DNA from: Actinomycetes bacterium
Lineage (GTDB): Bacteria > Actinomycetota > Acidimicrobiia > Acidimicrobiales > Microtrichaceae
Direction: 5' to 3'
DNA: 42,688 nt
Assembly: GCA_023450775.1 (NCBI GenBank)
Contig: JAEXGP010000320.1
Location: forward strand, 1 to 42,688
The translations under genes were made by a program, and so were the position numbers. Below are positions 4,381-19,034 of the stretch, piece by piece. The notes below the pieces were generated by a model. It had not been told where the DNA came from and did no database searches. It saw only the letters and a list, made by a program, of their open reading frames with translations. Position 1 is the first letter of the stretch. The number at the start of each line of letters is the position of its first letter.

Positions 4381-4469
4381 CGACCGAAAGTATGTCGGAC
4401 CGACCTCGGCAAGTGAACGGCTGCTGCCCCGTCCTCCCACGTCGCTGGACGACCGACGACCGCGGCTGT

Positions 4470-4509
4470 GTTCCCGACCTGGCACCCAGGAAGGTGCCCG
4501 ATCGGGAAC
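4470..4509. repeat. 40-bp imperfect palindrome (REP-like hairpin or terminator)
   Basis: GTTCCCGA-cct-GGCACC-cagga-aGGTGCC-cga-TCGGGAAC, just downstream of the ABC ATPase stop codon. Confidence 0.5.
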
Positions 4510-4528
4510 GAAGCGGGCGGCGTGGTCG

Positions 4529-5275
4529 TCACTGCGGGTCGACGACCTTGCCGTCGTCCATGTGGATGATCCGGTCCGCCGCGTTGGCCACGTGGTCGTC
4601 GTGTGTGACGACGACGATCGTGACGTCCTCCTCCGACCGCAGGTGCTCCATGAGCTCGAGCACCAGGTCGACCGATCGGCTGTCGAGCGAGCCGGTGGGT
4701 TCGTCGGCCAGCAGCAGTCCCGGTCGGTTTGCCAGGGCGCGGGCGATCGCCACCCGCTGACGCTCGCCGCCCGACATCTGCGGCGGCCGGCGGTGACCGA
4801 GGTGGCCCAGGTCGACCAGCTCGAGCAGCTCCCGCGCCCGCTCGGTCCGCTCCCGGCGGTTGGTGTGGCTGCCCATCATGGCGACCCCGATGTTGGCCAT
4901 GGCGTCGAGGTGGGGGAGCAGGTTGTGCATCTGGAACACCAGCCCGACCTCGGTGCGCCGGTAGCGGTTCACGTGGTCGGGGTGCGTGATGTCGTGGCCC
5001 TCGACGTGCAGCGACCCGCTGTCGGGATGGTCGAGCGCGGCGAGCAGGTGCAGGAGGGTGGACTTGCCGCATCCGGAGCGTCCGGTGACCGCCACGTACT
5101 CGCCCGACCGCACGGTCATCGTGAGGCCGTCGAGCGCGGTGACCACGCCGCGGTCGAACGTCTTGCGGACGTCGATGGCCTCGATGGCGGGTGGCGTCAG
5201 CGTGGCGGTGGCGCCGGTGGCGCCGGTGGTGGCACCCGTCGAGCCCGCCTGCGGTCGGTCAGTCGGATCACTCAC
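4529..5275 (-). CDS. ABC transporter ATP-binding protein (LolD/MacB-like)
   Basis: Walker A GRSGCGKST, signature MSGGERQRVAIARAL, Walker B LLLADEPTGSLD, 'VVVTHD'. Confidence 0.92.
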   Translation of the reverse strand: MSDPTDRPQAGSTGATTGATGATATLTPPAIEAIDVRKTFDRGVVTALDGLTMTVRSGEYVAVTGRSGCGKSTLLHLLAALDHPDSGSLHVEGHDITHPDHVNRYRRTEVGLVFQMHNLLPHLDAMANIGVAMMGSHTNRRERTERARELLELVDLGHLGHRRPPQMSGGERQRVAIARALANRPGLLLADEPTGSLDSRSVDLVLELMEHLRSEEDVTIVVVTHDDHVANAADRIIHMDDGKVVDPQ

Positions 5276-6386
5276 GGCGCATCGCCTCCTGTGGTGAGAG
5301 CCGCGCGGCGCGCAGCGCCGGGTAGAGCGCGCCGATCGCCGTCACCGCGGTCGCGGTGACGAGCGCTCGGCCGAACACCCAGGCCTCGAACGTCGGTTTG
5401 AGGACGCCTTGCAGGTCCGGCAGGTCGGCGAGCACCCACACGGCCGCGAAGCCCAGTCCGACGCCCAGGCACGCGCCGATGAAGGCGATGATCGCCGCCT
5501 CGCCGAAGATCAGCGCGACGAGCCGCTTGCGCGACCAGCCGATCGCCCGCAGCACACCGAACTCGCGGTAGCGCTCCACCAGCGACAGGAGCATGGCGTT
5601 GGCGACGACGATCGCGCCGACCACGATGGCCACGATCGTGGCGGCGCGGTCGGCGCCGCTGATGAGCTGGTAGCTGCGGTCGGCGCGGCCGAACTCGAGC
5701 AGGTTCTGGATGCCGATCAGGACGGGGTTCTCGTCCTCGATCCGCCGTTCCAGTTGCGCGACCTTGGTGCCCTTGTCGACCTTGACGAAGAAGAGGGACA
5801 GCCCGCCCGGCTGACGCTCGTACGCCTGGAACGGCACCAGCGGGAACATGATGGCGCTGTCGCCGAACGTGTTGCCGGTGTTGAAGACGCCGACCACCGT
5901 CCGGTCCGCGTCGGCGATGTGGATGGTGTCACCCGGCCCGATGTTCAGGTCCTGGGCCAGTCGGATGCCGACCATGATCTCGTCCTCGGCCTCCGCGGTG
6001 AACGGCCGGCCGGCGGCCACCCGGACGCCGAACGGCTCCAGGTCCTCGGGCCGGATCCCGACCTCGACCACCAGCGGGTGCGCGTCGTCGAGCTTGTCCG
6101 TGCTGAGCAGCACACCGGTCGCGCTGCTCACGCCGGGAGTGGCTCGGACCCGCTCGAGCTGTTGCTCCGTGAGCGCGCTCTCCAGGATGTCGTTGAGGCC
6201 CTTCTGCGAGATCGTGAAGTCGGCGGCACCCACCTCGAGCACACCCGCGGCGGTGGTGCGGATGCTGTCGGTCACGATCCCGAGCGTGACGACGACCAGC
6301 ACGCCGATGGCCACGGCGAACGCGGTCAGCATCGACCGGACCTTCTTGGACCAGACGTTGTGACCGATCAACCAGATGAACGACAT
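5268..6386 (-). CDS. ABC transporter permease (MacB/FtsX family)
   Basis: ATG 6386 gives 'MSFIWLIGHNVWSKKVRSMLTAFAVAIG', a large extracytoplasmic domain, and the FtsX motif 'LLSLVERYREFGVLRAIGWSR...ALYPALRAARLSP'. Overlaps the ATPase start. Confidence 0.9.
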   Translation of the reverse strand: MSFIWLIGHNVWSKKVRSMLTAFAVAIGVLVVVTLGIVTDSIRTTAAGVLEVGAADFTISQKGLNDILESALTEQQLERVRATPGVSSATGVLLSTDKLDDAHPLVVEVGIRPEDLEPFGVRVAAGRPFTAEAEDEIMVGIRLAQDLNIGPGDTIHIADADRTVVGVFNTGNTFGDSAIMFPLVPFQAYERQPGGLSLFFVKVDKGTKVAQLERRIEDENPVLIGIQNLLEFGRADRSYQLISGADRAATIVAIVVGAIVVANAMLLSLVERYREFGVLRAIGWSRKRLVALIFGEAAIIAFIGACLGVGLGFAAVWVLADLPDLQGVLKPTFEAWVFGRALVTATAVTAIGALYPALRAARLSPQEAMRRE

Positions 6387-6494
6387 GGCGACTCCCTCGT
6401 CGCGTGTACGCCCCAGCTGCTGGTGGTCCCGCTCCCGTAGTGTGCCGCGCCGGACGCCGGGGCGGCCGGATGTCTTGCGTGGAACACTGCCGGG

Positions 6495-7358
6495 ATGACC
6501 CAGCTCACCGGCACCGGCATCTGGAGCGCGGCGCTGCGCTACGGCGACGTGGAGGTCGCCCGCACCGCGGCGGCCGAGCTCGAATCGCTCGGCTACTCCG
6601 CGATCTGGCTGCCCGACGTGGGCGGCGACGTGTGGACGCCGCTCGACGCCGTGCTCGGCGCGACCAGCTCCACGACCGTCGCCACGGGCATCCTCAACAT
6701 CTGGATGCACGAGCCGGCCGACGCCGCCGCGCAGTTCCAGCGGCTGACCGCGGAGCACGGTCCGCGGTTCCTGATGGGGCTCGGCGTCAGCCACGGTCCG
6801 TTCATCAACGCGACCGGCAAGGGCAACTACTCGAAGCCGCTGACGCACATGCGCGAGTACCTCGACGGACTGGACGCCGCTCCGGAGCCGGTCCCGTCGA
6901 CCGACCGGGTGCTCGCCGCGCTGGGCCCGAAGATGCTCGAGCTCGCCCGGACCCGCGCCGCCGGGACCCACCCGTACCTGGTCGTGCCCGAGCACACCGC
7001 CGCGGCGCGAGCCGCGCTCGGTGACGGACCGCTCGTCGCGCCGGAGCAGGGCGTCGTGCTGTCGACCGATCCGACCCACGCCCGGGAGGTGGCCCGCCAG
7101 CACCTGTCGGTCTACGTCACGCTCCCGAACTACGCGATCAACTGGTTCCGCCTGGGCTTCACCGAGGAGGACACGCTCGACGGCGGCAGCGACCGGTTGG
7201 TGGACGCCCTGGTCGTGTGGGGCGACGAGGACGCCATCCTCGCCCGCGTGCAGGAGCACCGCGATGCCGGCGCCGACCACGTGTGCCTGCAGGTCCTGGG
7301 CGAGGACCTGCCGATGGAGGACTGGCGTCGCCTCGCCCCGGTCGTCACCAGCGTTTGA
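6495..7358 (+). CDS. LLM-class (probably F420-dependent) oxidoreductase
   Basis: 'ELESLGYSAIW', 'TVATGILNIW', 'GPRFLMGLGVSH', 'LAALGPKMLELA', 'AGADHVCLQ' match actinobacterial luciferase-like F420 enzymes. Confidence 0.88.
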   Translation: MTQLTGTGIWSAALRYGDVEVARTAAAELESLGYSAIWLPDVGGDVWTPLDAVLGATSSTTVATGILNIWMHEPADAAAQFQRLTAEHGPRFLMGLGVSHGPFINATGKGNYSKPLTHMREYLDGLDAAPEPVPSTDRVLAALGPKMLELARTRAAGTHPYLVVPEHTAAARAALGDGPLVAPEQGVVLSTDPTHAREVARQHLSVYVTLPNYAINWFRLGFTEEDTLDGGSDRLVDALVVWGDEDAILARVQEHRDAGADHVCLQVLGEDLPMEDWRRLAPVVTSV

Positions 7359-7484
7359 TTGTCCCATCGGTATCCGGGCGTCGCGATCCGACGCTCCTCG
7401 TACGGGCGTGACCGCCATCCGCTGCGACGGTGTGAGCGATGCTTCGGTCGTTCGCTCGGCCTGCTCATGCCACAATCGCGGACC

Positions 7485-10268
7485 ATGGAGGGAGAAGATG
7501 AAGGGCGCGCACGCGTCTTCGTGAGCTATCGACGGAACGTCGACCTCGCCGCAGCTCGACAGGTCGTCCTGTCGCTGCGTCAGCGACTGGAGGAGGATCA
7601 GCTCTTCTACGCCGAACTGGACTCCTCGATCCCTCCCGTCTCCAGGTGGAAGGACCAGATCGACAAGGGCCTCGACTCCGCAGCGGTGTTCGTCCTCGTC
7701 ACGGGCCCCGACTGGTTGGACGAGTTGAAGCGCCGGGAGGCCGACGGGAAGACGGACTACCAGCTCTACGAGATCGCGAGGGCGCTGGAGGCGGACCTCC
7801 CGATCTTCTGGGTTCTGATGGACGGCGCCGGCGACCGGCCACCCGAGCCCGACGACCTACCGGAGGAGATCCGAGCGCTGTGCGAGGTGCAGGCGGTCGA
7901 CCTCCCGCAACGACACTTCCACCACCTCGTCGAGCCGCTCGTCGACCGCATCGTCGGCCTCCTCCAGGAGACGGGAGACAGCACCCGGCGCAACGGGAGG
8001 CGGTCGGCGGGTCCCAGGACCGAGCTTCTCGTCGGTCCGCTCGAGACCGGTGCGCCGTTCCGGGAGATCGCCCACGCGGTCGACGCCGCCAGCCCGGGCA
8101 GCATCGTCCGCGTCCTGCCCGGCACCTACCACGAGCCGGTCGTTATCGGTGAGACCGTCACGATCCTGGGCGCCGGACCGGAGGCGACGATGCTCCGGAC
8201 CGCCGGAATATGCCTGGACGTAGCCGCCGACGACGTGGAGATCGGCCAGATCGGCGTGGTGCTGGAATCGAAGGACGACGGCGGCGTCGGCATCAGGGTG
8301 AGCGGGGTGAACGCCCTGATCGACGGATGTGATGTCGCCGGCGGTCTCGCACCCGGTTCCATCGGCATCGTGGTCACCGAATCGGCTCGTGCGGCAACGG
8401 TGCGGTCCACCGTGGTGCACCATCTCACGCTCGGGATCGACCTGGCCGGCTCGGGCGATCACGTCGTGGACGACTGCCGTCTGACGAACCTGGAGGAGAC
8501 CGGCATCCTCGCGTGCGCGCCCGCCCACGTCACCGACTGCGACTTCAAGCGGATCCCTCGGAACGCCGTCGTGATTGGTGCCGGCGGGGAGGCCGTCGTC
8601 GAGCGTTCGCGCTTCTCGGGGAAGGACCGCCGTTACCGCTGTGTCGATGGCGGTCGGCTGCTGCTGCGCGGCGCGCGGGGCCGCGCTGGCACCATGCGGG
8701 AGATCGGGTTGGCGTTCAACCTGGGAGCCATCGACAAGGTGAACCTGTCGGGACTCCGCGAGCGGCACCGTCGTGGTGAAAAGGTCCGCCTCCGCGACAC
8801 GTTCACCGGTGGGACCGACGACGTCGTCGTCGTGGTCGACGGCGGCACAGTCGAGGTCCACGAGAGCGACCTCGCGGGGGTGTCGGTCGCGGACGGCGGG
8901 CACGTCCGTCTCCTCGACTGCGAGACGGAGGAGATCGCGGTGGCGGCGTCCGAGATCGAGATCGCGGAGACCTCGGCGGAGCGGATCCGGGCGTCGGAAG
9001 GCGCGACGGTCACGTTGCGGGGCTCCGTCGTCCGTCCGGTGTGGAAAGACAGCAAGTTTGACTACCACCCGCCGGCGATCTCGGTCGCGGACGGATCCGT
9101 CCTCCGGATCCTCGACGGGAGCGACATCGATACGGCCCACCGCAACAACTGGAACGGATCTGCTCAGTGTGCCGGGGTGGTGGCGAAGGACTCGACCGTC
9201 GAGGTGGCGGGTTCGACGGTCCTCGGCCTCAGAGCGACTGCGATCACCCAGGCCGCTGGGTCGCTCGAGCTGCATGATGCGACGGTGGATACCCGATCGC
9301 ACTCGGGCCCGACCGTCGACGTCTCGTCCGGCGCGACGGTGCTCGTGGTGGGATCGTCGATCACTGGCGCCGTCGCACTCGGCCGGGCTCGCACGACGGG
9401 CACCGACTCGACGTTCAAGGGGGGACTCACTGCGACCGATGCCGTCGTCGACCTCACCGGCTGCCAGGTCGTGACCAACACGCTCAGCGGCACGCTGACC
9501 GTCGACGGTGGAACCGATCTGTCGTGCACCGGGGGCACCGTCCGGACCCCGCTCGTCGTGCGGGGCCACGACGTCCGCGTGCGCCTGACCGATGCACGAT
9601 TCGACGGTGAGGTCCGGGTCGACGCGGTCGGATCCGTCGAGGTCGCCGACTGCGTCCTGAACAAGACGTTGTCAGTGGCCGGGGATCGTCTCGAGGTGGC
9701 GGTGAACGGCGGCGAGATCCGCTCGTTGACCGTCGAGACCGACGTGGCGGTCCGGGATGTCACCGTTCGGGACGTCTCGATCGGGTCGGTGCGCGCCGAG
9801 CTGTCCACGTGCGAGATCGTCGGCCGGCTGAAGGTCGAAGAGGGAGGATCGGCCGAACTACGTGGGTGCACCGTGAGGACGGGACAGGTCGTGGTCGGAG
9901 GAGGCGGGACGGCGACCCTGCTGGATTGCCAGATCGTCGAGGTGGTGGCCCGGGGCGACGGTCCGGACGACGCGGGCCTGGTCGTCGCGCCATACGGCAC
10001 GCTGGACGTGGTGGGTGGTCGGGTGGCGAGCCCGCAGGAGATCAAGGCGCCGAAGATCCTGCTCCGACGGTCCACCAAGGAGAAGGCCGAGCGTCTTGCT
10101 GGTCTCGGCGGTGCCCGAGTCGTCAGCGTCCATGAGGACGGTCATGCCCGGTTCGAACGCGTGGCGTTCAGCGAGCTGGGCACCGCGCCGGTCCTGCTCG
10201 CGGACGGCGCGTACGCCCGGTTCGACGACTGTACGCTGGACGGCGAACCGTGGCGGCCGGTGCCGTGA
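7485..10268 (+). CDS. TIR-domain protein fused to a long right-handed parallel beta-helix (pectin-lyase-like) region
   Basis: TIR: 'RVFVSYRR...WKDQIDKGLDSAAVFVLVTGPDW...DYQLYEIARALEADLPIFWVLMDG'. Beta-helix cap 'PFREIAHAVDAASPGSIVRVLPGTYHEPVVIGETVTILGAG' and ~700 aa of V/G/D-rich strands. Start is ATG 7485 (alternative 7467), with CACAAT at 7471-7476. Confidence 0.8.
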   Translation: MEGEDEGRARVFVSYRRNVDLAAARQVVLSLRQRLEEDQLFYAELDSSIPPVSRWKDQIDKGLDSAAVFVLVTGPDWLDELKRREADGKTDYQLYEIARALEADLPIFWVLMDGAGDRPPEPDDLPEEIRALCEVQAVDLPQRHFHHLVEPLVDRIVGLLQETGDSTRRNGRRSAGPRTELLVGPLETGAPFREIAHAVDAASPGSIVRVLPGTYHEPVVIGETVTILGAGPEATMLRTAGICLDVAADDVEIGQIGVVLESKDDGGVGIRVSGVNALIDGCDVAGGLAPGSIGIVVTESARAATVRSTVVHHLTLGIDLAGSGDHVVDDCRLTNLEETGILACAPAHVTDCDFKRIPRNAVVIGAGGEAVVERSRFSGKDRRYRCVDGGRLLLRGARGRAGTMREIGLAFNLGAIDKVNLSGLRERHRRGEKVRLRDTFTGGTDDVVVVVDGGTVEVHESDLAGVSVADGGHVRLLDCETEEIAVAASEIEIAETSAERIRASEGATVTLRGSVVRPVWKDSKFDYHPPAISVADGSVLRILDGSDIDTAHRNNWNGSAQCAGVVAKDSTVEVAGSTVLGLRATAITQAAGSLELHDATVDTRSHSGPTVDVSSGATVLVVGSSITGAVALGRARTTGTDSTFKGGLTATDAVVDLTGCQVVTNTLSGTLTVDGGTDLSCTGGTVRTPLVVRGHDVRVRLTDARFDGEVRVDAVGSVEVADCVLNKTLSVAGDRLEVAVNGGEIRSLTVETDVAVRDVTVRDVSIGSVRAELSTCEIVGRLKVEEGGSAELRGCTVRTGQVVVGGGGTATLLDCQIVEVVARGDGPDDAGLVVAPYGTLDVVGGRVASPQEIKAPKILLRRSTKEKAERLAGLGGARVVSVHEDGHARFERVAFSELGTAPVLLADGAYARFDDCTLDGEPWRPVP

Positions 10269-10298
10269 CCGCCGCTCCACCGATCGCGTGCGGTGGCG

Positions 10299-11204
10299 TC
10301 AGTCCAGTCGGTAGTCGATGACGTAGAGCGCAGTCCCCGCGCCGACGAACACTGTCACCAGCGCGCTGATGATCGTCAGCTCGGTGGCGATCGCCAACCC
10401 GATTCCAGCGCCGGTCACCCCCTCCGCGAAGGCGATCGCCTGCATCGCACCGGCGGCGAGGCCGGCCGGGATGAGCGTGAGCACGAACAGCCGGAGGAAG
10501 ACGGTGAACGTCCGTCCTTGCACCTCCCGCCACGACATAGCGAGGCACTGTGCCCACCCCCAACCAGGCGTGAGGTGGTCATCGGCCACCGCGATGGCTA
10601 CGACGAAGCTGGTCCGAGTGACGACGAACAGCATGACCACCTGGAGCGTCAGCTGCACCGGCACGGAGACCCACAGCGTCCAGCCGTTCATGACGATCGC
10701 CGGGACGAACAGCAGTGCATACGCGCTGACGGCCACGACGGTCCATGCCATCAGCACTCGAGGGACTCTGCGGACCGCGTGGAGCAGGTTCGAGCGGCTG
10801 GGGAGTGCGTCCCCGGCGCGCCTCGACACCCCGATGGAGAAGTAAGTCTGCGAAAACGCGGTCAGCAGCGCCCAGGCCCCGAGGACCAGTCGGGCGATCG
10901 TCCGGGACTCGCCGAACGAGCGGTCGATGGCGCCGCTCACCCGCTCCCACAGCGCGTCCCTGGTGCCGACCACGCCCAGGTGGAACGCGTCGTCCACCTT
11001 CCAGAGGTCCTCCATCGACATCAGCTCAGCGGACGTCCACACCGAGCGGAGGCCCCACGCGAGCAGCAGGTCGAGGGCGAGCCAGACGATCAGGATGGCG
11101 AGCACCAGCGACGGGAGCGCGAGCGCGACTGCGCCGAACGCCCGCGGAAGCACCCACTCCGGCTCATCCGTCGTGTCGCTCGCGATCTCGGGTGGAGACG
11201 TCAT
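10299..11204 (-). CDS. Hypothetical multi-pass membrane protein (~6 hydrophobic segments)
   Basis: Several long hydrophobic stretches. Third co-oriented gene, 31 nt after the VirD4-like stop. No confident family. Confidence 0.7.
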   Translation of the reverse strand: MTSPPEIASDTTDEPEWVLPRAFGAVALALPSLVLAILIVWLALDLLLAWGLRSVWTSAELMSMEDLWKVDDAFHLGVVGTRDALWERVSGAIDRSFGESRTIARLVLGAWALLTAFSQTYFSIGVSRRAGDALPSRSNLLHAVRRVPRVLMAWTVVAVSAYALLFVPAIVMNGWTLWVSVPVQLTLQVVMLFVVTRTSFVVAIAVADDHLTPGWGWAQCLAMSWREVQGRTFTVFLRLFVLTLIPAGLAAGAMQAIAFAEGVTGAGIGLAIATELTIISALVTVFVGAGTALYVIDYRLD

Positions 11205-11235
11205 CGGGTCAGCGGGGTTCCGGAGCGTCGGCCAG

Positions 11236-12495
11236 TCAGGGCTCTCGCAGCGCGGCGGCGACCAGCTCGGGGTCCTCGAAGCTGCGGCGCGTCAGCAGGA
11301 TCTCCGGCGGCAGGTGTCGGTAGATGCACAGCGTCTCGTCGGGTTGGAGGCGCCGGAGCAGCGAGCTGGGCCGACCGACGACGTCGGTGGGGAGCTCCTC
11401 TGGCAGGAGGATCTCATCGAGCATCTGGTAGGTCCGTCCTTCCCGCATGCCCGGGAACACGACCATGGCGCCGTGGTTGACGGCGATCGTGGCTGCCCGC
11501 TCGTACCCGTACGCCGAGATCGCCTGGTTCATGTTGTGGAAGATGGTGACGAGCTGCATGCCGGAGCCCGCAGCGGTTGTCGCCAACCGGTCCAGATCGG
11601 GGAGACGGCAGACGTTGCCCGCCTCGTCGAGGGCGATCAGCAGCGGACGCGTGATGCGGCGGCCCTCCGAGTCGCGGCCGTACACCTTGCCGATGAGGTG
11701 ACGGACCAGCCCCGTGATGATCGGAGCGAGCTCCTGCTGGCTGTCCGGCGGGACGCAGAGGTAGAGCGTGTTGGCCCCGCCGTCCAAGAACTCGTCGGCA
11801 TCGAACAGCTCGCCCTCGGTGGACGAGAGGACCTGGTCGGTCTGGTAGGCGGTCAGCACGCTCAGCGCTGTGGCCCGCACGCCCCCGGCGGTGACGTCGG
11901 GATAGCTGGTGAAGGCGCTGAAGATGTTGGCGGGCTGCGCCTCGACCCGTTGGCCGGCCCGGTCCAGCGCTCGGGCCATCTCCATGTTCGTGGCGTCCTG
12001 CAGCCACGTGAGCACGGCGCGCATGGAGCCGCGATCCACGTTGGCGAGGCGCAGCGCTGCTGCCAAGAGGCGTTGCGCCTCGGAGTACCAGAACTCGCCA
12101 TCGGTGACGCCGGCCTTGTCGACGGAGTTGACCAGCCAGTGGGCGAGCGAGAACGCCTGGTCCCACGAGTCCGACAGCTGCACCGGGTCCCACCCCACTC
12201 GTGGCAGGTCGCCGAGCTTCCCCGTCGGCTCGAACACCGAGGCCCGCCCGATCGCTGCTCGCGCGGCGATCGTGGCATCGACCACGTCGCGTCGCACCGA
12301 GGTGATGATCGCCGGCCCTTCCCACTCGAGCAGCGAGGGGACGATGAAGCCGGTCGTCTTGCCGGTGCGAGGCGCACCGAGGACCAGGATCGGCTGGCAC
12401 TCCTCGGCTCGGACGACGCCGTCGTCGGTGCGGCCGAGGGCGATCCGGTGTCCCGCGGGAACGTCGTCGCCGAGCTCCTCGGCGAGCCTGCTCAC
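11236..12495 (-). CDS. VirD4/TraG-like type IV coupling-protein ATPase, lacking N-terminal TM anchor
   Basis: 'ILVLGAPRTGKTTGFIVPSLLEWEGPAIITSVRRD', 'VGWDPV', 'FWYSEAQRLL', 'NTLYLC', Walker B 'LLIALDEAGN', 'GSGMQLVTIFHNMNQ'. GTG 12495 overlaps the upstream TGA (GTGA). Confidence 0.82.
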   Translation of the reverse strand: MSRLAEELGDDVPAGHRIALGRTDDGVVRAEECQPILVLGAPRTGKTTGFIVPSLLEWEGPAIITSVRRDVVDATIAARAAIGRASVFEPTGKLGDLPRVGWDPVQLSDSWDQAFSLAHWLVNSVDKAGVTDGEFWYSEAQRLLAAALRLANVDRGSMRAVLTWLQDATNMEMARALDRAGQRVEAQPANIFSAFTSYPDVTAGGVRATALSVLTAYQTDQVLSSTEGELFDADEFLDGGANTLYLCVPPDSQQELAPIITGLVRHLIGKVYGRDSEGRRITRPLLIALDEAGNVCRLPDLDRLATTAAGSGMQLVTIFHNMNQAISAYGYERAATIAVNHGAMVVFPGMREGRTYQMLDEILLPEELPTDVVGRPSSLLRRLQPDETLCIYRHLPPEILLTRRSFEDPELVAAALREP

Positions 12496-14453
12496 AGGTA
12501 CATCCCGGGGACGCAGGACTCGGATCCATCCAGACCGTGGAGCCGAAGCAGCGCCGGTAGGTCCCAGACCTCGTGGGGCCCGATCACCTCGATCGGATCG
12601 CCATCGTCGCGGCGGTCGACCAGGTGGCCCGGTACCACGACCCGGTCCCACTCCATCGCGCGGATCAGATTGCGGATGATGGGCTCCGGTAGATCGATGG
12701 GCTCGACAGCGCCTCGCGGCGACAGCACGCCCAGCACGCCGACCGAGGCATCGAGCGGTCGACCGGCGGCGAGGCTGCAGGAGGCGAGTGCGGCGGCGAC
12801 CGAGAGCCACGGAGCGTGCCAGCCTCCATCAGTAGACTGCAGACCGATCGTGACGCGGATGCCCGCGGGCAGCGAGATCCCGAGTGGCGAAAGGTCGCGG
12901 GCGGTCTCGACGGCGTCCCGGATGAGTGCGGCTGTCCGCGGATGGACCGCGTCGGGGACGAGCGTGCCGGACCACCCGCGGATCGCGGTGGCGTCGAGTG
13001 CCGTCGGGAAGCCCGATGAGTCGTCGATGAGGGGAACCGGGTAGCTGCCCGGAGCGTTGGTCCCCGCTGGCCGGCGTACCGGGCCGAGCACGGCGTCCAG
13101 CCCGTGCCGGTCGATAGGGGCGGCGTCATCGCTGCTCACCCAGGTCGCGACCACTCGGGCCAGATCGCGTTCGAGCTCGCGCATTCCTGCCCGGGCATCG
13201 TGTCGGTCGACGAGGTCGCCGACGAGGTCGGGAGTCACGATGGCGGTCGGTTCGACACCGTGGGGCCTGCACAGCGAGGGGAGAATGAACCGCTCCGTGA
13301 TGAGCTTCCGGTCCTGCGGCGACGGTGGTCCCAGCTCGATGACCTCGGCGTGGTCGCGCAACCCAGCGGGTACGCCGGCGAGGCTCCGAGCCGAGACGAC
13401 GACCAGGAATGATCCGAGATCGAGCCCGAACCCGTCGGGGAGGTAGCGGTCACGAAGCATCCGGTCGGGGCGGTCGGCCAGGTCGATGAGCGTCGCCGCC
13501 AGCGTGCCGGCGGCGGTGTCGCCGACTTCGTCGATCCCTTCCAGGAACAGCACCGCGCGCCGTCCGGCCGCGGCCAGCCCCGCTTCGACGAACTCCCCGC
13601 GCGAGGCGTCGTCGGGTGGGGACCACTCACCGAGCAGGCCGACGCGAGGATCCGGCAGCGACGCGCACCGGACGTGGTGGAACGACCGGGCGAGTGCAGC
13701 AGCCGTGGCACGGACGAACCGCCGCTTGCCGACCGACGGAGGCCCGCACAGCACCACGATCCGTGGTGCGCGACGTGTCCGCTCGACGGAGCGATCGACC
13801 AACCACTCTCCCTCGACCACGGCGCGGAGTCGGTCGTCGAGGACGACGACCTCGGCATCGAGTCGGTCGAACACTGCGGCGAGCGCCGGTGGCTCGGGAG
13901 GTCGAGGAACAGACGCGAGCACGAAGCAGTCGTCGAGGAGCTGCTCGTAGGCATCCGCCATGCGAGCGTCGAGCGACCGTGAACGGCGGGTCAGGCGTTG
14001 GAGGCAGGCGGTCTGCTCGTCCGTGAGCCGGTCGGCGCGCTGGAGCCGACGCCATCGCTCCGTGGGCAGCGGGGCGGACCGCCGCCGGCCGAGTCCTGTC
14101 GACCGGTGGAGCTGGAGTAGAGCCTCTGCTGTCAACCCGTGCGGCTCGGTGATCTGCAACACGACGTTCAGGGTCCACTCGACCTCGGTGTCCGCCGTTC
14201 CGTCGATGAGGCTCCGGGCCACGTCCCTCGCTCCCGCGACGTCGAGCGACGACACCCGATCCAGGCCCTGCTCGAGGCGAACGGCCAAGCGGTCACCGAG
14301 GCGCTCCCGACCTCGACACACCAGCTCGTCGGCCCGGTCGGCGGCAACGACGACCGCATCGAGCACGCACCGTTCGACCGCGCCGAGATCGGGCCCGGCC
14401 GGCCCGACAGCGTCGCTCGTCCGATCCAGGTCCGCCCTTCCCTCAGCCGACAC
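12492..14453 (-). CDS. Degenerate LonA-like AAA+/protease-fold protein (probable pseudo-enzyme)
   Basis: Collinear with LonA: 'IVVLCGPPSVGKRR', 'VLFLEGIDEVG', 'LRDRYL...LDLGSFLVVVSA', 'GLRDHAEVIEL...RKLITERFILP', 'AGMRELERDLARVV', and protease-like 'AALASCSLAAGRPLDASVGVLGVLSPRGAVEPI'. GGAGG upstream of the GTG. Confidence 0.75.
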   Translation of the reverse strand: MSAEGRADLDRTSDAVGPAGPDLGAVERCVLDAVVVAADRADELVCRGRERLGDRLAVRLEQGLDRVSSLDVAGARDVARSLIDGTADTEVEWTLNVVLQITEPHGLTAEALLQLHRSTGLGRRRSAPLPTERWRRLQRADRLTDEQTACLQRLTRRSRSLDARMADAYEQLLDDCFVLASVPRPPEPPALAAVFDRLDAEVVVLDDRLRAVVEGEWLVDRSVERTRRAPRIVVLCGPPSVGKRRFVRATAAALARSFHHVRCASLPDPRVGLLGEWSPPDDASRGEFVEAGLAAAGRRAVLFLEGIDEVGDTAAGTLAATLIDLADRPDRMLRDRYLPDGFGLDLGSFLVVVSARSLAGVPAGLRDHAEVIELGPPSPQDRKLITERFILPSLCRPHGVEPTAIVTPDLVGDLVDRHDARAGMRELERDLARVVATWVSSDDAAPIDRHGLDAVLGPVRRPAGTNAPGSYPVPLIDDSSGFPTALDATAIRGWSGTLVPDAVHPRTAALIRDAVETARDLSPLGISLPAGIRVTIGLQSTDGGWHAPWLSVAAALASCSLAAGRPLDASVGVLGVLSPRGAVEPIDLPEPIIRNLIRAMEWDRVVVPGHLVDRRDDGDPIEVIGPHEVWDLPALLRLHGLDGSESCVPGMYL

Positions 14454-14616
14454 CCGACGCCGCCTCCCTCAGTGCGCGCCAGCCGGCTCGTCGCCGGCGC
14501 CGGTCAAGGTAGCAGCGCGCGTCGGGTGCGCTGCAGGGCGGTCCTCTGTGCCGGGCGTGCCACCATGGTTCGATCGCGGAGCGAGGGAGCGCTGTCGGGT
14601 GAGGTCGGAGAACACG

Positions 14617-16197
14617 GTGTTCGTCGCTCTGGCCAGGCTCACGCGGCACCGCTGGCGACTCACCTGGACACTGGTCGCGCTCGCCGCCGTGTCGGTGGTC
14701 CTCGGGGTGATCGGCTGGATCCAGGTTGCTCGTTCCGACGGCAGCAGCGTCGACGGATGGGCCGTGGTCTACGGCACGATCGGTCTGTTCGCATTCGTCC
14801 CCGATGTCGAGGGGGCGCCGTGGCCGCTCGCCGTTGCGCGGGTGACGGCACCGGTCACCACGGTCGGCGCAGCGTTGGCGGCGCTCCTGGCGTTCGCGGA
14901 CACACGGATCCACCGACGCGCTGCGAGCTCCGCACGGGATCACCTCGTGCTCTACGGGCCGTCGGAGCGAATCGGGCCGTACCTCAGCGCCGCCTTCGAC
15001 CATGTCCGCGACGGCGGGATCGTCGTGCGACTGGATCTCGACCAGGAGATCGGAGACGTGACGGTGGCCGGTGCCGACGATGACCTGGCCGATCGCGTGA
15101 CGACGGTCAGCGTGGCCGTCCGAGCCGACCCGTTCGGTCTGGTGCGCGACCGGTGGGACCGCGCAGCGGGCCCTGCACCCACGGACTGGGTGGTCGCCTC
15201 CGGCGCCGCCGCCGCCCGCTCGGCGGTGATCGCCACCGGGCGGGACGAGTGGAACATCGAGGCGCTCGGCGTGGCGCTCGACTCTGGCCTCCCCGGGGAA
15301 CGCCGGCGCCTGACCGTCGAGATCGACGACCGTTCCACTGCGTTGCGTCTCGCCGTGGCGTTCGCGGCGGAGCGGACCGACGAGGAGATCCAGGTCGTGT
15401 GCCGCGACGAGGTGCTGGCGCGGCGTGCCGTCGGCCGCCTGCTCGACTCAGCGTCCGCCACCCGAGTCGATGCGGAGGGACCGGACCTGACGATCGTCGG
15501 TGACGGCCCGATGGTGCAGCTCGTCGTGATGGAGCTCGGTCGGCGTCTGAATCGGCGCCACGTCGACGGCCTCGGACATCAGCGCCTGCCGCTGGAGATC
15601 ATCGACCCGGACCCGGACCGCGCCGCATCCCTTCAGCAGCGGGTCCGTTCGGGACGGCTCGAGGTACGGACGTCTCACGACCCTCACCGACTCCTCGACG
15701 ATCGCCGGCCGGTCCGGGCGTTCGTCGACTTCGCAGACCCGCAGCGCAGCCTCCGCTTCGCGCTCGAGCTCGCCGCCAGCAGTCCGGACCATTCCGTCTG
15801 GGGTCTGTTCGGACCCGGTCCGCTGCCGTTCGATCGACTGGTCTCGCTCGACGACCGTGAGGAGCTGTCGGCGTCCGATCTCGTCGGCCCGTTCACCCGC
15901 GCAGCGGCCGACGCGACGGCAGCCGGAACGCCGGTCACCGCCGGAATGTTGCGGGCGATGACCGCCGACCTCGTGACACACGGATGGTCGCTGGTCCCCA
16001 CGACCGGAACGAACGCGCCGACCGAGCTCGATCGAGCGACGATCGAGCGCCTTGCGTCGGTCGCTTCCTCTCGGGCTCCTCGACCCGGGGAGCCCGCGGC
16101 GCCCGGCGTTCAGGCCGCGATGGATCTGGCGGAAGACTTCCCAACCCTCGCAGATGCGGTCGGACTGGCCTTGGTCGAACCTCGGATCGAGGGCTGA
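14617..16197 (+). CDS. Membrane protein: 2 TM with pore-helix-like segment plus two degenerate RCK/TrkA-N-like Rossmann domains (channel-like)
   Basis: GGAG 6 nt before GTG 14617. TM1 'WTLVALAAVSVVLGVIGW', 'WAVVYGTIGLFAF', TM2 'PWPLAVARVTAPVTTVGAALAALL'. Rossmann-like starts 'DHLVLYGPSERIG' and 'DLTIVGDGPMVQLVVMEL', plus 'AVIATGRDEWNIEAL'. Confidence 0.6.
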   Translation: MFVALARLTRHRWRLTWTLVALAAVSVVLGVIGWIQVARSDGSSVDGWAVVYGTIGLFAFVPDVEGAPWPLAVARVTAPVTTVGAALAALLAFADTRIHRRAASSARDHLVLYGPSERIGPYLSAAFDHVRDGGIVVRLDLDQEIGDVTVAGADDDLADRVTTVSVAVRADPFGLVRDRWDRAAGPAPTDWVVASGAAAARSAVIATGRDEWNIEALGVALDSGLPGERRRLTVEIDDRSTALRLAVAFAAERTDEEIQVVCRDEVLARRAVGRLLDSASATRVDAEGPDLTIVGDGPMVQLVVMELGRRLNRRHVDGLGHQRLPLEIIDPDPDRAASLQQRVRSGRLEVRTSHDPHRLLDDRRPVRAFVDFADPQRSLRFALELAASSPDHSVWGLFGPGPLPFDRLVSLDDREELSASDLVGPFTRAAADATAAGTPVTAGMLRAMTADLVTHGWSLVPTTGTNAPTELDRATIERLASVASSRAPRPGEPAAPGVQAAMDLAEDFPTLADAVGLALVEPRIEG

Positions 16198-16212
16198 GTA
16201 GCTTTCGTCCGC

Positions 16213-16701
16213 ATGGGAGAGAAGGTTCCGAGCGACGGTCAGATCGATGACATGGCACGGGCGGTGCACGAGCAGTACCTGCTCGACAACGCGGACGATC
16301 CCGGCCACGCGGCGATGGTCCCGTGGGAAGAGCTCGACCCGCTCCGGAAGTCGCAGAACCACGACCAGGTGCTGATGACGATCCAAGCACTTCGCGATGC
16401 GGGGTTCGTCCTCGCCCCGGCCGGCTCGGTGCCGACCGATGCCACAGTGACGTCGCTGGCCGACGACGTGGTCGAGTCGATGGCGCGGAACGAACACGAC
16501 AGGTGGTGCCAGAAAAAGCGCGCCGCCGGCTATCGCTACGGACCGACCACGACGGACGTCGGTGGCGATCTGCGGCACGAGAACCTCGTTGCCTGGGCGG
16601 ACCTGAGCGAGGCCGACCGCGAGAAGGACCGTCGACCGATCGCCGACTTCCCGCGGATCCTCGGCATCGGCGGGTGGGTGCTGACCAGACCGTTCGGCTG
16701 A
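16213..16701 (+). CDS. Stand-alone RyR-domain protein (two tandem RyR repeats)
   Basis: Repeat 1 'MARAVHEQYL...MVPWEELDPLRKSQN'. Repeat 2 'MARNEHDRWCQKKRAAGYRYGP...HENLVAWADLSEADREKDR', the classic RyR EHxRW...GW/YxYG...LVxWxxL...EKD motif. Confidence 0.85.
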   Translation: MGEKVPSDGQIDDMARAVHEQYLLDNADDPGHAAMVPWEELDPLRKSQNHDQVLMTIQALRDAGFVLAPAGSVPTDATVTSLADDVVESMARNEHDRWCQKKRAAGYRYGPTTTDVGGDLRHENLVAWADLSEADREKDRRPIADFPRILGIGGWVLTRPFG

Positions 16702-16795
16702 TCGCCGTCCTCCGGCGCGGACGGCGCGTACTTCCCGAGCGACGAGGGTCGCCGCTGTGCGCCCGTCAGTCCAGGGGTGTGTACCGTGCGCCGGC

Positions 16796-18922
16796 GTGAC
16801 CGACGCGCCCACGAGCCAGCCCATCCGCATCGACGCCGGGGGGTGGGGGCTCAGCTGGGTCGCCGACGACGACGGCCGGCTGCACCAGCTCGGGCTCGGG
16901 CCCGACGGCCACATCGCCACGCTCGACGTGGGCGCTCAGTGGTACCCGATCGCGTTCCCGACCCTCGACGGCACCGACCCGTTCCGCCCGCCGGCGCTGC
17001 AGATCACCCACGCCGACGGCACGCTGACCACACGGCTGGTGTTGACCGCGGTCGAGCGTGACGACGACCCGTCGGGCAGCCACGTGGTCGTCCGCACCTC
17101 CGACGAGCGCTTCGACCTGACCGTCGAGCACCACTTCCGGACCCATCCCGACTCGGGCGTGCTGGAGCAGTGGGTCGAGGTGATCCACGTGGAGGACGGA
17201 CCGATCACGCTGCTCGCCCACGACTCGCTCGCGCTCTTCCTCATGGTCCCGTCGGACGCCGAGTTCGTGCAGTTCGGCGGCGCGGGCTGGGCCGACGAGT
17301 GGCGGTGGAGCACCGACCCGCTGACCGTCGGGACGACCGTGCTCGCCAGCTTCGGCGGGGTGCAGCCGCACCTGCAGCGCAGCCCGTGCCTCCTGATGTC
17401 GCCCACCGGGCCGTTCGCCGCCGAGCAGGACGACGGTGCCGTGGTCGGCATGAGCGTGGCGTGGGGCGGCAACTCGCACCACTCCCTCGACGTGAAGCCC
17501 CGCGCGGAGCCGGACGGCCCGTGGGAGCTGCGGCTGCGGGCCGGCGCGAGCGCGCTCGGTGCGCCCTACCGCCTGGACCCCGGCGTCCGCATGGTGCTGC
17601 CGACCGTGGCGTGGACGTGGTCGATGACCGGGCGCGACGGCGTGACCGATGCGTTCCACCGGTGGAGCCGTGATCGGGTGCTGCGCGATCCGGACCGCCG
17701 GCGCCCGCTGGTCGTCAACAACTGGGAGGCGACGTTCTTCGACTTCGACGAGGCGCGCATCGTCGGGCTGATCGACCGGGCCGCCGACCTCGGTGCGGAC
17801 GTCTTCCTGCTCGACGACGGCTGGTTCGGCACGACCCATCCGCGCGACGACGACACGCAGGGCCTGGGCGACTGGGACCACGACGTCCGCAAGCTCCCGG
17901 GCGGGCTCGCGCCGCTCGCCGACGCCGCGATCGGGCGGGACATCCGCTTCGGCATCTGGGTGGAGCCCGAGATGGTCAACCCGGTGAGCGAGCTCTACGA
18001 CGCGCACCCCGAGTGGGTGCTGCGCGACGCGCGGGAGCCCCGGCTGCACCGCCACCAGCTCTACCTGGACCCGTTGCAGGCCGACGTCCGCGACTTCGAG
18101 GTCGCGGTGGTCGACCGCACGCTCGCGTCGGCGCCGCCGACCAGCTACGTGAAGTGGGACGCCAACCGGCCGATCACCGACCCCGGCTCCCGGGCGTTGC
18201 CCGCCGACCGCCAGGCCAACGTCTGGTTCGACCACGTCGGCGCGACCTGGGAGGTCATGGAGCGCGTGGCCGACGGCCATCCCGACGTGGAGCTGATGCT
18301 GTGCGCCTCGGGCGGCGGCCGCGTCGACCACGGCACCCTGCGCTGGTTCCACGAGTTCTGGACCTCCGACAACACCGACCCGGTCACGCGTGTCCGCATG
18401 CAGTGGGCCTGCTCGCACTTCTTCCCCGGTGCCGTCATGGCGGCCCACGTGACCCGGTGGGGCGAGCGGCCGATGCCGTTCGCCTGCGCGGTCGCGCTGT
18501 CGGGACGATTCGGCATCGACCTGGACCTGGGGTCGGTCACGGACGACGAGGACGCGGTGCTGCGCCGGGCGGTCGAGTGGGCCCGTCGCACCCAGGACGT
18601 GGTGCAGCGAGGAACGGTCCGGCGCTACGTGTCGCCGGTGGATGGCGACGATCGGTCGAGGGCGGCCTGGTCGATCGCCGGCGACGACCGTCGGGTCGTC
18701 GTGTTCGCCTACCAGCTCGAGGATCCGTCGGGCCCGGCGCACTCGATCGCACTGCGGGGCCTGGACGCGGACGCGACCTACGAGGTGCGCTCGACCGACC
18801 TGGACGCGTTCGACGAAACCACGACCGCAACGGGTGCCGAGCTCGCGGCCGGTCTCGCGTGGCCGCTCGACGCGCCGCTCACCGCTCGCCTCTGGGAGCT
18901 CACGCCGCTCGAGCGGTTCTGA
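16796..18922 (+). CDS. Alpha-galactosidase, glycoside hydrolase family 36
   Basis: 'VNNWEATFFDFDE', 'FLLDDGWFG', 'GLGDW', 'FGIWVEPEMVN', nucleophile 'YVKWDANR', 'CASGGGRVD', acid/base 'WTSDNTD'. Start GTG 16796 (alternative 16757). Confidence 0.93.
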   Translation: MTDAPTSQPIRIDAGGWGLSWVADDDGRLHQLGLGPDGHIATLDVGAQWYPIAFPTLDGTDPFRPPALQITHADGTLTTRLVLTAVERDDDPSGSHVVVRTSDERFDLTVEHHFRTHPDSGVLEQWVEVIHVEDGPITLLAHDSLALFLMVPSDAEFVQFGGAGWADEWRWSTDPLTVGTTVLASFGGVQPHLQRSPCLLMSPTGPFAAEQDDGAVVGMSVAWGGNSHHSLDVKPRAEPDGPWELRLRAGASALGAPYRLDPGVRMVLPTVAWTWSMTGRDGVTDAFHRWSRDRVLRDPDRRRPLVVNNWEATFFDFDEARIVGLIDRAADLGADVFLLDDGWFGTTHPRDDDTQGLGDWDHDVRKLPGGLAPLADAAIGRDIRFGIWVEPEMVNPVSELYDAHPEWVLRDAREPRLHRHQLYLDPLQADVRDFEVAVVDRTLASAPPTSYVKWDANRPITDPGSRALPADRQANVWFDHVGATWEVMERVADGHPDVELMLCASGGGRVDHGTLRWFHEFWTSDNTDPVTRVRMQWACSHFFPGAVMAAHVTRWGERPMPFACAVALSGRFGIDLDLGSVTDDEDAVLRRAVEWARRTQDVVQRGTVRRYVSPVDGDDRSRAAWSIAGDDRRVVVFAYQLEDPSGPAHSIALRGLDADATYEVRSTDLDAFDETTTATGAELAAGLAWPLDAPLTARLWELTPLERF

Positions 18923-18925
18923 CTG

Positions 18926-19034
18926 CGGGACGTCTCGCACCCGATGAGGGCACGACGCGTCAGGGGTTCCGGCACGGCCTGAGCTCGGGACGTCACGCAC
19001 CCGATGTGGGCGCGACGCGTCCCGGGGTCCGGCA
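18926..19034. repeat. Two tandem copies (period 60 bp) of a ~49-bp palindromic REP-like element (family B)
   Basis: CGGGACGTCTCGCACCCGATGAGGGCACGACGCGTCAGGGGTTCCGGCA (18926-18974) and CGGGACGTCACGCACCCGATGTGGGCGCGACGCGTCCCGGGGTCCGGCA (18986-19034). Confidence 0.8.

Follow-up and report, generated by a model that had tools for sequence, protein, structure and literature searches.

The 42,688-bp contig JAEXGP010000320.1, analysed here over its whole length and referred to as the window, carries a block of six genes at positions 7485-16701. These genes encode a TIR-beta-helix protein, a polytopic membrane protein, a soluble ATPase resembling VirD4-type type IV coupling proteins (T4CPs), a degenerate Lon-like protein, a channel-like membrane protein with RCK domains, and a ryanodine receptor (RyR)-domain protein. 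The window comes from a draft genome of 4.1 Mb in 434 contigs that is 91% complete, and the six genes were called by open reading frame (ORF) selection guided by the GC content at third codon positions (GC3), together with translation. The block is a strain-specific island, one insertion carrying all six genes. We favour, with moderate confidence, the reading that the island encodes a Thoeris-like TIR pathway whose receptor is the RyR domain, of the Repeat12 type, on an RCK channel-like protein, the two ATPase-type proteins forming an accessory or separate pair.

The channel-like protein and the RyR protein

On the plus strand, the channel-like membrane protein P0005/P0043 (532 amino acids, 14599..16197) is followed in the same reading frame by the two-repeat RyR protein P0006 (162 amino acids, 16213..16701), with one TGA (16195..16197) and five codons before the ATG of P0006 between them. 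An exhaustive HMMER search of 1.84 billion representatives finds 88 relatives of P0005. Among 36 relatives scanned for domains, 16 carry a fused C-terminal RyR domain, TrkA_N is recognisable in four, and a TIR domain is present in one. In 9/9 fused relatives, P0005 aligns to residues ~15-485 and full-length P0006 to the C-terminal 520-700, in colinear order. By these alignments, P0005 and P0006 are two halves of a protein that is one chain in relatives, the in-frame TGA dividing the ancestral RCK-RyR protein; the original prediction had counted the channel and the RyR protein as two components, a count that gives way to one split protein. Because the P0005 orthologue P0044 (526 amino acids, 48% identical) also terminates at this linker position, the split is conserved rather than a fresh lesion.

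The AlphaFold 2 (AF2) model of P0005, with a predicted local distance difference test (pLDDT) score of 87.2 and a predicted template modelling (pTM) score of 0.85, contains two transmembrane helices with a short re-entrant helix between them, followed by two tandem RCK/TrkA_N-like Rossmann domains. Foldseek ranks GsuK first (4gx0/4gx2, E 8e-7, probability 1.0), followed by the TrkA ring, CASTOR and MthK, and the global template modelling (TM) scores against GsuK-type structures are only ~0.3. On this model, P0005 shares the two-helix pore and tandem RCK architecture of RCK-gated K+ channels. P0005 itself has no match in Pfam, where TrkA_N goes undetected, and its ESM Atlas neighbours, which are TrkA_N/RyR clusters, serve as a lead only.

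P0006 matches the Pfam family RyR (PF02026) at 2.5e-14 and RyR2 at E 2e-13, with H95, W98 and H122 aligned to the H/W/H residues of the RyR2 repeats. Its AF2 model (pLDDT 93.9) is matched by Foldseek to the complete two-repeat RyR3 Repeat12 structure and to Bt-hRyR_12, a Bacteroides/human chimera, with TM-scores of 0.74-0.77. The residues at the ligand positions are H95, W98, H122, K138 and D139, and their spacing matches that of the residues in the phage proteins RyDEP and RyR Tad. Across 23 aligned RyR regions, E94-H95 is invariant and W98 almost invariant. P0006 is a member of the RyR/Repeat12 family, with the two-repeat helical fold and the H..W, H and K-D positions. In PHROGs, only weak families of unknown function match P0006 and the Lon-like protein P0004.

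The TIR-beta-helix protein and the membrane protein P0002

P0001, the first gene of the island (7485..10268, plus strand, with alternative starts at 7359 or 7467), combines an N-terminal TIR_2 (Pfam, 1.2e-7) with Beta_helix (2.2e-10). Its best sequence match in the PDB is the TIR domain of SARM1 (E 3.6e-4), and E96, which aligns with the Glu of the SARM1 'KEI' motif, presumably E642, is the candidate catalytic Glu. E80 in 'WLDEL' had been considered for this role and was dropped for E96 after the SARM1 alignment. The long right-handed beta-helix is presumed to be the sensor. In NCBIfam, ThcB4 reaches only 15.9 bits among the island proteins against a cut-off of 220.

P0002 (301 amino acids, 10299..11204, minus strand), a polytopic membrane protein and the last gene of the minus-strand operon, has no family in Pfam, PADLOC, NCBIfam or PHROGs. 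Its structural neighbours in the ESM Atlas belong to DUF7847/GPDPase_memb (TM 0.64), so that a DUF7847/GPDPase_memb-like fold may be taken as a lead only. A P0002-like gene occurs in just one of 400 other genomes of the class, namely G594, where it lies beside TIR-beta-helix and RCK-RyR genes. A complex prediction of the VirD4-like ATPase with P0002 returned a score of 0.00, which is no answer either way.

Linkage of TIR and RyR genes across Actinomycetota

Two samples were surveyed, 400 genomes of the phylum Actinomycetota and 400 of the class, and TIR_2 was mapped in all 29 RyR-bearing genomes among them (13/400 in the phylum sample, 16/400 in the class sample). RyR has a TIR_2 match no more than 10 kb away in 17 of these 29 genomes (9/13 phylum, 8/16 class) and in 12 of 22 genera; one of the matches, in G590, scores 24.6 bits, below the Pfam cut-off, and was confirmed by a local profile. 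The TIR gene often directly adjoins the RyR gene, at distances of 36 bp (G776), 66 bp (G483), 76 bp (G426) and 86 bp (G594). Because RyR-bearing genomes, of 1.5-7 Mb, contain only 1-4 TIR_2 matches each, chance proximity would be ~1% per locus, a figure that is an estimate and not a computed control. A local profile search of all 33 RyR loci of both samples finds a TIR in 19 and an RCK domain fused to RyR in 23, and 12 of the 23 RCK-RyR loci have a TIR.

TIR_2 is also the commonest Pfam family among the 93 neighbour ORFs of the first 13 RyR loci, with 7 members. Of ten RyR-adjacent TIR proteins that were scanned, five have WD40 propellers, one has PknH_C, one an alpha/beta hydrolase and one a Vgb-lyase-like propeller. 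Genome G000 holds a sole TIR_2 match and a sole RyR match, both inside this island. In P0083 (872 amino acids, from a representative library), TrkA_N (150-213), RyR (598-677) and TIR_2 (712-785) are joined in one chain. Next to RyR genes there is a strong enrichment of TIR genes whose C-terminal repeat domains vary.

Two further loci show RyR domains in other company. At L096 (9929-12452, minus strand), a protein of 748 amino acids with TIR and a nucleoside phosphorylase-like domain (PNP_UDP_1) is immediately followed by a standalone RyR protein of 100 amino acids (E 2.6e-29), a minimal TIR/RyR pair. At L100 (7435-11737, plus strand), a TrkA_N-RyR membrane protein adjoins a protein of 908 amino acids with RelA_SpoT, TPR, LSDAT_prok (SLOG) and RyR. 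Because the L100 genome has no TIR_2 match, RyR may also serve nucleotide signalling that does not involve TIR.

A second copy of the core

In G594, which belongs to another genus of the same class, locus L110 (4312-15211) carries an RCK-RyR gene and, 86 bp on, a TIR-beta-helix gene whose product is 28% identical to P0001 over 337 amino acids and contains TIR_2 and five Beta_helix stretches. Past this gene come a patatin-like phospholipase and then a convergent homologue of P0002 (49% identity, E 4e-82), and upstream are a second, short TIR gene and a divergent gene for a ClpB-like double AAA+ protein. No VirD4-like or Lon-like gene is present at this locus. Four of the six window genes recur together here, and P0002 therefore belongs with the TIR/RyR core. 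The original prediction had grouped three genes as a tight minus-strand trio; this trio is not one evolutionary unit, since P0002 travels in G594 with TIR-beta-helix and RCK-RyR and without the ATPases.

Boundaries and composition of the island

The island lies between a gene for a luciferase-like monooxygenase on one side and a glycoside hydrolase family 36 (GH36) alpha-galactosidase gene, followed by sugar ATP-binding cassette (ABC) transporter genes, on the other. Thirty relatives were searched by DNA using window positions 5300-19000 as the query, and the flanks were found in relatives, the island never. The island DNA (7353-16738) is unmatched in 8/8 genomes of the same genus. In five of these eight, both flanks lie on one contig, 53-1060 bp apart, the shortest spacing, 53 bp, being that of the complete genome G002, and the flanks of G005 (94% identical) being separated by 177 bp; in the remaining three the flanks are on separate contigs. 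Alignment places the junctions at ~7355, just past the monooxygenase stop, and at ~16710, just past the RyR stop, giving an insertion of 9.4 kb.

The GC3 of the six island genes is 0.861 +/- 0.034, compared with 0.924 +/- 0.066 for the 18 other genes of the window, a modest effect (one-sided Mann-Whitney p = 0.0013); in the comparison set one gene, FtsX, was mis-framed by the coordinates used, which makes the test conservative. None of the six proteins has a PADLOC match better than E = 0.03. These results agree with much of what had been proposed from the letters of this stretch: the six genes with their assigned domains and flanks are all present at 7485-16701, their codons end more often in A/T than those of the flanks, and no named system in PADLOC matches the block in full. 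The labels 'pseudo-Lon', 'VirD4-like', 'channel-like' and 'no named system' likewise hold. The divergent intergenic region between the pseudo-Lon operon and the RCK/RyR genes, proposed as ~160 bp, is corrected to 145 bp (14454..14598), because the database record of P0005 starts at 14599.

Signs of mobility were sought at the island, and no tRNA, no integrase among the ORFs and no convincing terminal direct repeats were found. Thirty nucleotides near the end of the TIR-beta-helix gene (10199-10228, 3' end) have a second, 83%-identical copy at 16716-16745 on the right boundary, and this recurrence could be chance in GC-rich DNA or the trace of a rearrangement. A recent plasmid origin was considered and rejected, as a plasmid collection gave no close match for the VirD4-like, Lon-like or P0002 proteins: the VirD4-like matches reach at most 32% identity (423 records), the Lon-like matches are only true Lon proteins aligned over the AAA+ part (2 records), and P0002 has none.

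The pseudo-Lon and VirD4-like pair

P0004 (12492..14453, minus strand), a Lon-like AAA+ protein, matches TIGR00763 lon at 9e-18 and Lon structures at E 2.8e-18, with 7p6u aligned over residues 228-587, through the protease domain. It reads GKRR at Walker A, [ED]G at Walker B and HAPWLS at the catalytic Ser motif, and the dyad position ('PIGG-LKEK' region) has no Lys. These degenerate motifs, together with a C-terminal PGMYL, are conserved in 4/4 homologues. By its motifs, P0004 is a conserved pseudoenzyme whose Lon AAA+ and protease-like domains are catalytically degenerate. P0007 (419 amino acids, 11236..12495, minus strand) is a soluble VirD4/T4CP-like P-loop ATPase that matches T4SS-DNA_transf (PF02534, 1.8e-27), TraG-D_C and TrwB_AAD_bind. 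Its Walker A and B motifs are intact, with K46, D290 and E291 invariant in 24 sequences, and it has no N-terminal membrane anchor, its hydrophilic N-terminus beginning ~35 residues before Walker A. The island lacks genes for VirB4, TraC and a relaxase. P0004 and P0007 are translationally coupled, the TGA stop of the former and the GTG start of the latter overlapping as GTGA, and P0002 follows P0007 after a gap of 31 nucleotides.

Relatives of P0007 are common in Actinomycetota: 572 stretches were confirmed, and 80 loci from among them were retained. Sixty of the 80 have a context like that of a type IV secretion system (T4SS), with VirB4/TraC-like neighbours. The five closest (39-42% identity) are C-terminal domains of long single frames of 1661-2000 amino acids, found at ~5300-11300 (plus strand) of L004-L007 and L071 in Streptomyces, Actinomadura and Micromonospora. 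Of these five, L004 and L071 were scanned with Pfam; both contain Trypsin_2, a STAND NTPase and the VirD4-like domain, and L071 alone contains a weak TPR_6, which suggests that a T4CP-like domain was recruited into a STAND conflict protein. Two other loci, L012 (7793-12279) and L027 (7255-11816), both on the plus strand, carry a ClpB-like AAA_2 protein, a protein of ~370 amino acids, a VirD4-like protein and a RelA_SpoT-like nucleotidyltransferase, a cassette layout analogous to the AAA+/VirD4-like/effector order of the window. For the remaining 13 loci no context class was assigned.

The T4SS-like loci form a group of their own. At these 60 of the 80 loci (L008-L083; Acidimicrobiia and Solirubrobacterales), a protein of 520 amino acids, a TraC-like protein and a VirB4/HerA-like ATPase precede a longer VirD4, and nine of the loci share a gene cluster after VirD4, whose member in L082 is a pyridoxal phosphate (PLP)-dependent decarboxylase. 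This VirB4/TraC/VirD4 run of Acidimicrobiia and Solirubrobacterales looks like a chromosomal T4SS-like cluster.

At the level of families, the pair and the TIR/RyR core do not travel together. When the six proteins were compared by tblastn with the 80 VirD4-like genome loci, the VirD4-like protein alone was matched; local jackhmmer searches found RyR, RCK and Lon-like proteins at 0/84 VirD4-like loci (80 genome and 4 metagenome), and a profile search found VirD4-like and Lon-like proteins at 0/33 RyR loci. A joint system of TIR, ATPases and membrane effector had been proposed earlier. The part that joins TIR to the channel-like/RyR protein is supported by 17/29 genomes, the P0083 fusion and G594; the part that brings in the ATPase module through co-occurrence is not supported by these two counts.

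Close homologues of the pair were found only in metagenome assemblies. A metagenome scan with the close VirD4-like alignment gave four distant loci (26-33% identity) and did not recover the close contigs of the Joint Genome Institute (JGI). Homologues of the VirD4-like and Lon-like proteins occur on contigs of identical size, 10,283, 45,001 and 7,934 bp, and their co-location is inferred from size alone. The same holds for the 10,283-bp size, which is common to homologues of the VirD4-like protein (84%), the Lon-like protein (51%) and the RCK protein P0005 (48%), and for a 733-amino-acid RCK-RyR protein and a 60%-identical VirD4-like protein, whose longest contig is 32,371 bp for both. The contigs of 45,001 and 7,934 bp have the pair, and no RCK homologue was found for them; for 10 further relatives of P0005, no further size coincidence with the VirD4-like protein was found. 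The tie of the ATPase pair to the pathway rests on its operon linkage to P0002, the shared island history and two contig-size coincidences. In our reading, the two proteins either serve the pathway as accessories, for input or regulation, or form a separate module that resides in the island; we do not regard them as a universal part of the pathway.

Relation to known systems

Thoeris systems comprise types I-XI and 29 putative types, each with a ThsB TIR protein and a signal-activated effector, according to the main text of Yirmiya et al. (bioRxiv 10.64898/2025.12.03.692087). The island resembles them in pairing a TIR protein that has the catalytic Glu position with a membrane effector bearing a putative domain for an ADP-ribose (ADPR)-derived signal, in its variable-island location and in the variable sensor-like domains of the TIR partners. 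It differs in that the presumed receptor is of the RyR/Repeat12 type and the effector is a split RCK channel-like protein, and in that the TIR and effector genes are not adjacent, with P0002, the VirD4-like ATPase and the pseudo-Lon between them. The one-operon adjacency of Thoeris is thus missing from the window, and it is found in the relatives G594, G483, G776 and G426. Types I-IV, whose effectors are SIR2-SLOG, Macro-TM, type III and caspase-like proteins, are unlike the island, as no PADLOC match is better than E 0.03.

In the same text, type X is a validated type, from Bacillus sp. BH32, in which the TIR protein is paired with an 'ion channel' effector, ThsK; the likeness to the channel-like effector of the island is drawn by description only. 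No signal is known for type X according to that text, and a sensing domain of a new kind could have a place there. That main text never names RyR, TrkA or RCK, and the figures and tables that define effectors may include such a candidate. Should ThsK prove to be an RCK-RyR protein, the core of the island would become a variant of type X.

In the available text of two 2026 preprints, PMC13232231 and 10.64898/2026.06.04.730250, the RyR fold is regarded as a means by which viruses counter host defence. According to these preprints, the TIR-made signals 2'cADPR, 3'cADPR and cyclic ADP-ribose (cADPR) are bound, or in some cases cleaved, by phage RyR proteins, the ligand contacts being H/W/H/K-D residues; the binding of cADPR is reported in the latter. 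The residues involved are H75, W78, H100 and D117 in RyDEP, a phage glycosidase that uses a His/Asp pair (PMC13232231), and H129/W132, K147/H154 and K170/D171 in RyR Tad (10.64898/2026.06.04.730250). P0006 shares with both the Pfam family PF02026, the fold and the H, W, H and K-D ligand positions. By the same accounts, RyDEP and RyR Tad are small anti-Thoeris proteins with which phages destroy or sequester the signals of the host, whereas P0006 is encoded by the host itself, contains two repeats and corresponds to the C-terminal domain, here detached, of a membrane RCK protein.

The other proteins also depart from their models. In its predicted structure, P0005 resembles GsuK, MthK and TrkA, with two transmembrane helices, a re-entrant helix and two tandem RCK Rossmann domains, but it has no selectivity filter, and the P0005/P0006 family carries an RyR domain, which is absent from those channels. 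P0007 has the T4CP nucleotide-binding and all-alpha domains and the intact Walker motifs of VirD4/TraG/TrwB, but no membrane anchor and no T4SS or relaxase neighbours. P0004 retains the AAA+ and protease-domain architecture of Lon, but the Ser/Thr of Walker A, the Glu of Walker B and the Ser-Lys dyad are no longer present (4/4 homologues). A host-encoded RyR-domain partner of TIR was not found described in the literature searched, nor was the Lon-like/VirD4-like pairing in that literature or the PADLOC library.

A proposed TIR-RyR pathway

In the pathway that we favour, the beta-helix region of P0001 would sense an infection cue, and the TIR domain would use NAD+ to make a signal derived from ADP-ribose, which may be canonical cADPR or one of its isomers. 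P0006 would bind this signal through H95/W98/H122/K138-D139 and then act on the RCK ring of P0005, which, alone or with P0002, may open or perturb the membrane and lead to growth arrest or abortive infection. The signal, its binding, any channel activity and any defence role are our inference.

Several observations weigh against this pathway. The TIR match of P0001 is weak, at 32.7 bits against a cut-off of 28, and the chance proximity of TIR and RyR is the estimate given above. A TIR is lacking inside the 10 kb fetched at 11 of the 23 RCK-RyR loci, and G044, G679 and G726 possess RCK-RyR without any TIR_2 match in the genome; in general, RCK-RyR proteins do not depend on a TIR. A distance of 4.3 kb, occupied by three genes of the opposite strand, separates the TIR gene of the window from the RCK gene, and the two do not form one operon. 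K+ channels carry the selectivity filter motif T-x-G-[YF]-G. This motif is missing from P0005, with no GYG or GFG in residues 1-110, and because of this, channel activity is suggested at the level of the fold. Finally, P0006 retains the His/Asp pair of the glycosidase RyDEP, and for this reason it could degrade the signal instead of relaying it.

The census, together with the window, points to a host side of RyR, in which the RyR domains of Actinomycetota sit on RCK channel-like membrane proteins and, in about half of the RyR-bearing genera, directly adjoin TIR genes whose sensor domains vary. Were the RyR domain the receptor, it would represent a new effector class for Thoeris-type immunity, might explain the signal logic of the 'ion-channel' Thoeris and would offer an evolutionary precedent for the action of cADPR on animal ryanodine receptors. 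The pairing of a pseudo-Lon gene with one for a soluble VirD4-like ATPase is in itself undescribed, and because its closest VirD4-like relatives are fused to STAND NTPases, the recruitment of T4CP-like domains into conflict systems is suggested.

Alternative explanations

The strongest alternative, which we nonetheless hold unlikely, is that all six genes form one obligate system in which the VirD4-like ATPase and the pseudo-Lon act as a sensor or regulator controlling the TIR/RyR-channel arm via P0002, with incoming DNA, or relaxase or terminal proteins, as an example of the input recognised. The arrival of all six genes in a single insertion fits this explanation, as does the co-transcription of the core member P0002 with the ATPase pair, through the GTGA overlap and the 31-nucleotide gap. 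The absence of RyR, RCK and Lon-like proteins from all 84 VirD4-like loci, and of VirD4-like and Lon-like proteins from all 33 RyR loci, speaks against any obligate tie, and in G594 the core manages without the pair, with patatin, a second TIR and a ClpB-like AAA+ protein instead. The contig sizes point both ways: those of 10,283 and 32,371 bp are shared by close VirD4-like and RCK homologues, which is indirect support, and those of 45,001 and 7,934 bp have the pair and no RCK homologue that was found. The conflict-type contexts of the nearest VirD4-like genome relatives, five Trypsin-STAND-TPR fusions and two AAA_2/unknown/RelA_SpoT cassettes, are also in its favour. More doubtful still is the specific six-gene immune system in which a T4CP-like ATPase, with a dead Lon protein as its scaffold, would detect the DNA-protein complexes of conjugative or phage invaders and license the TIR-beta-helix protein, after which a cADPR-type signal would open the RyR-gated RCK channel with P0002 as co-effector. 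Should it hold, the principle 'cADPR gates a ryanodine receptor' would have a counterpart in bacteria, one that is linked to an ATPase sensing plasmids or phages.

It is rather improbable that P0006 is a host damper, a RyDEP-like glycosidase or a sponge, which clears stray TIR signal to prevent autoimmunity, the true effector being P0002 and/or P0005 and sensing taking place elsewhere, for example in the RCK nucleotide pockets. H95 and D139 of P0006 correspond to the catalytic dyad of RyDEP as described in the available text of PMC13232231, but in that same text most phage homologues with these residues bind without cleaving. P0006 is a free protein of 162 amino acids after the split, a standalone RyR stands beside a TIR elsewhere (the 100-amino-acid RyR after TIR-PNP_UDP_1 at L096), and GsuK RCK domains bind NAD+ and ADP, going by PDB titles. 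On the other hand, 16 of 36 relatives have RyR and the RCK membrane protein joined in one chain, and at 23 of 33 RyR loci the RyR domain lies within an RCK protein, an arrangement that fits the sensor domain of an effector.

The least probable explanation is a chance accumulation in a variable hotspot, in which a TIR NADase acting by itself, an orphan operon of ATPases and an RCK-RyR protein that adjusts ion flux to ordinary adenine nucleotides share no pathway and possibly have no defence role. It could draw on the RCK-RyR loci without a nearby TIR (11/23) and genomes without TIR_2, on PDB titles in which RyR Repeat12 domains also bind ATP and ADP, on three transcription units that differ in strand and on the lack of a PADLOC model for any of the six proteins, but against it stand a TIR-RyR proximity in 12/22 genera far above estimated chance, the TrkA_N-RyR-TIR fusion P0083, the joint recurrence of four of the six genes in G594, one of which encodes a membrane protein with a counterpart in just 1/400 other genomes, and the arrival as one block absent from 8/8 congeners.

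Further observations

A scan for promoters and terminators of the window came back empty, which is uninformative for high-GC actinobacterial DNA. Eight sequencing runs contain just 6-10% of the sampled words from the window; contigs assembled from four runs are short, and none usefully bridges an island junction. Pieces from run X1, ~94-97% identical, cover the genes of P0002, the VirD4-like protein, the Lon-like protein and P0005 as well as P0005/P0006, and no listed piece falls on the TIR gene, uncovered parts being no evidence of absence. About 3 kb upstream of the island, past a pair of ABC transporter genes, the window also carries a large STAND NTPase gene (1774-4875, minus strand) with DUF4062, NB-ARC and TPR, a gene of the conflict type.

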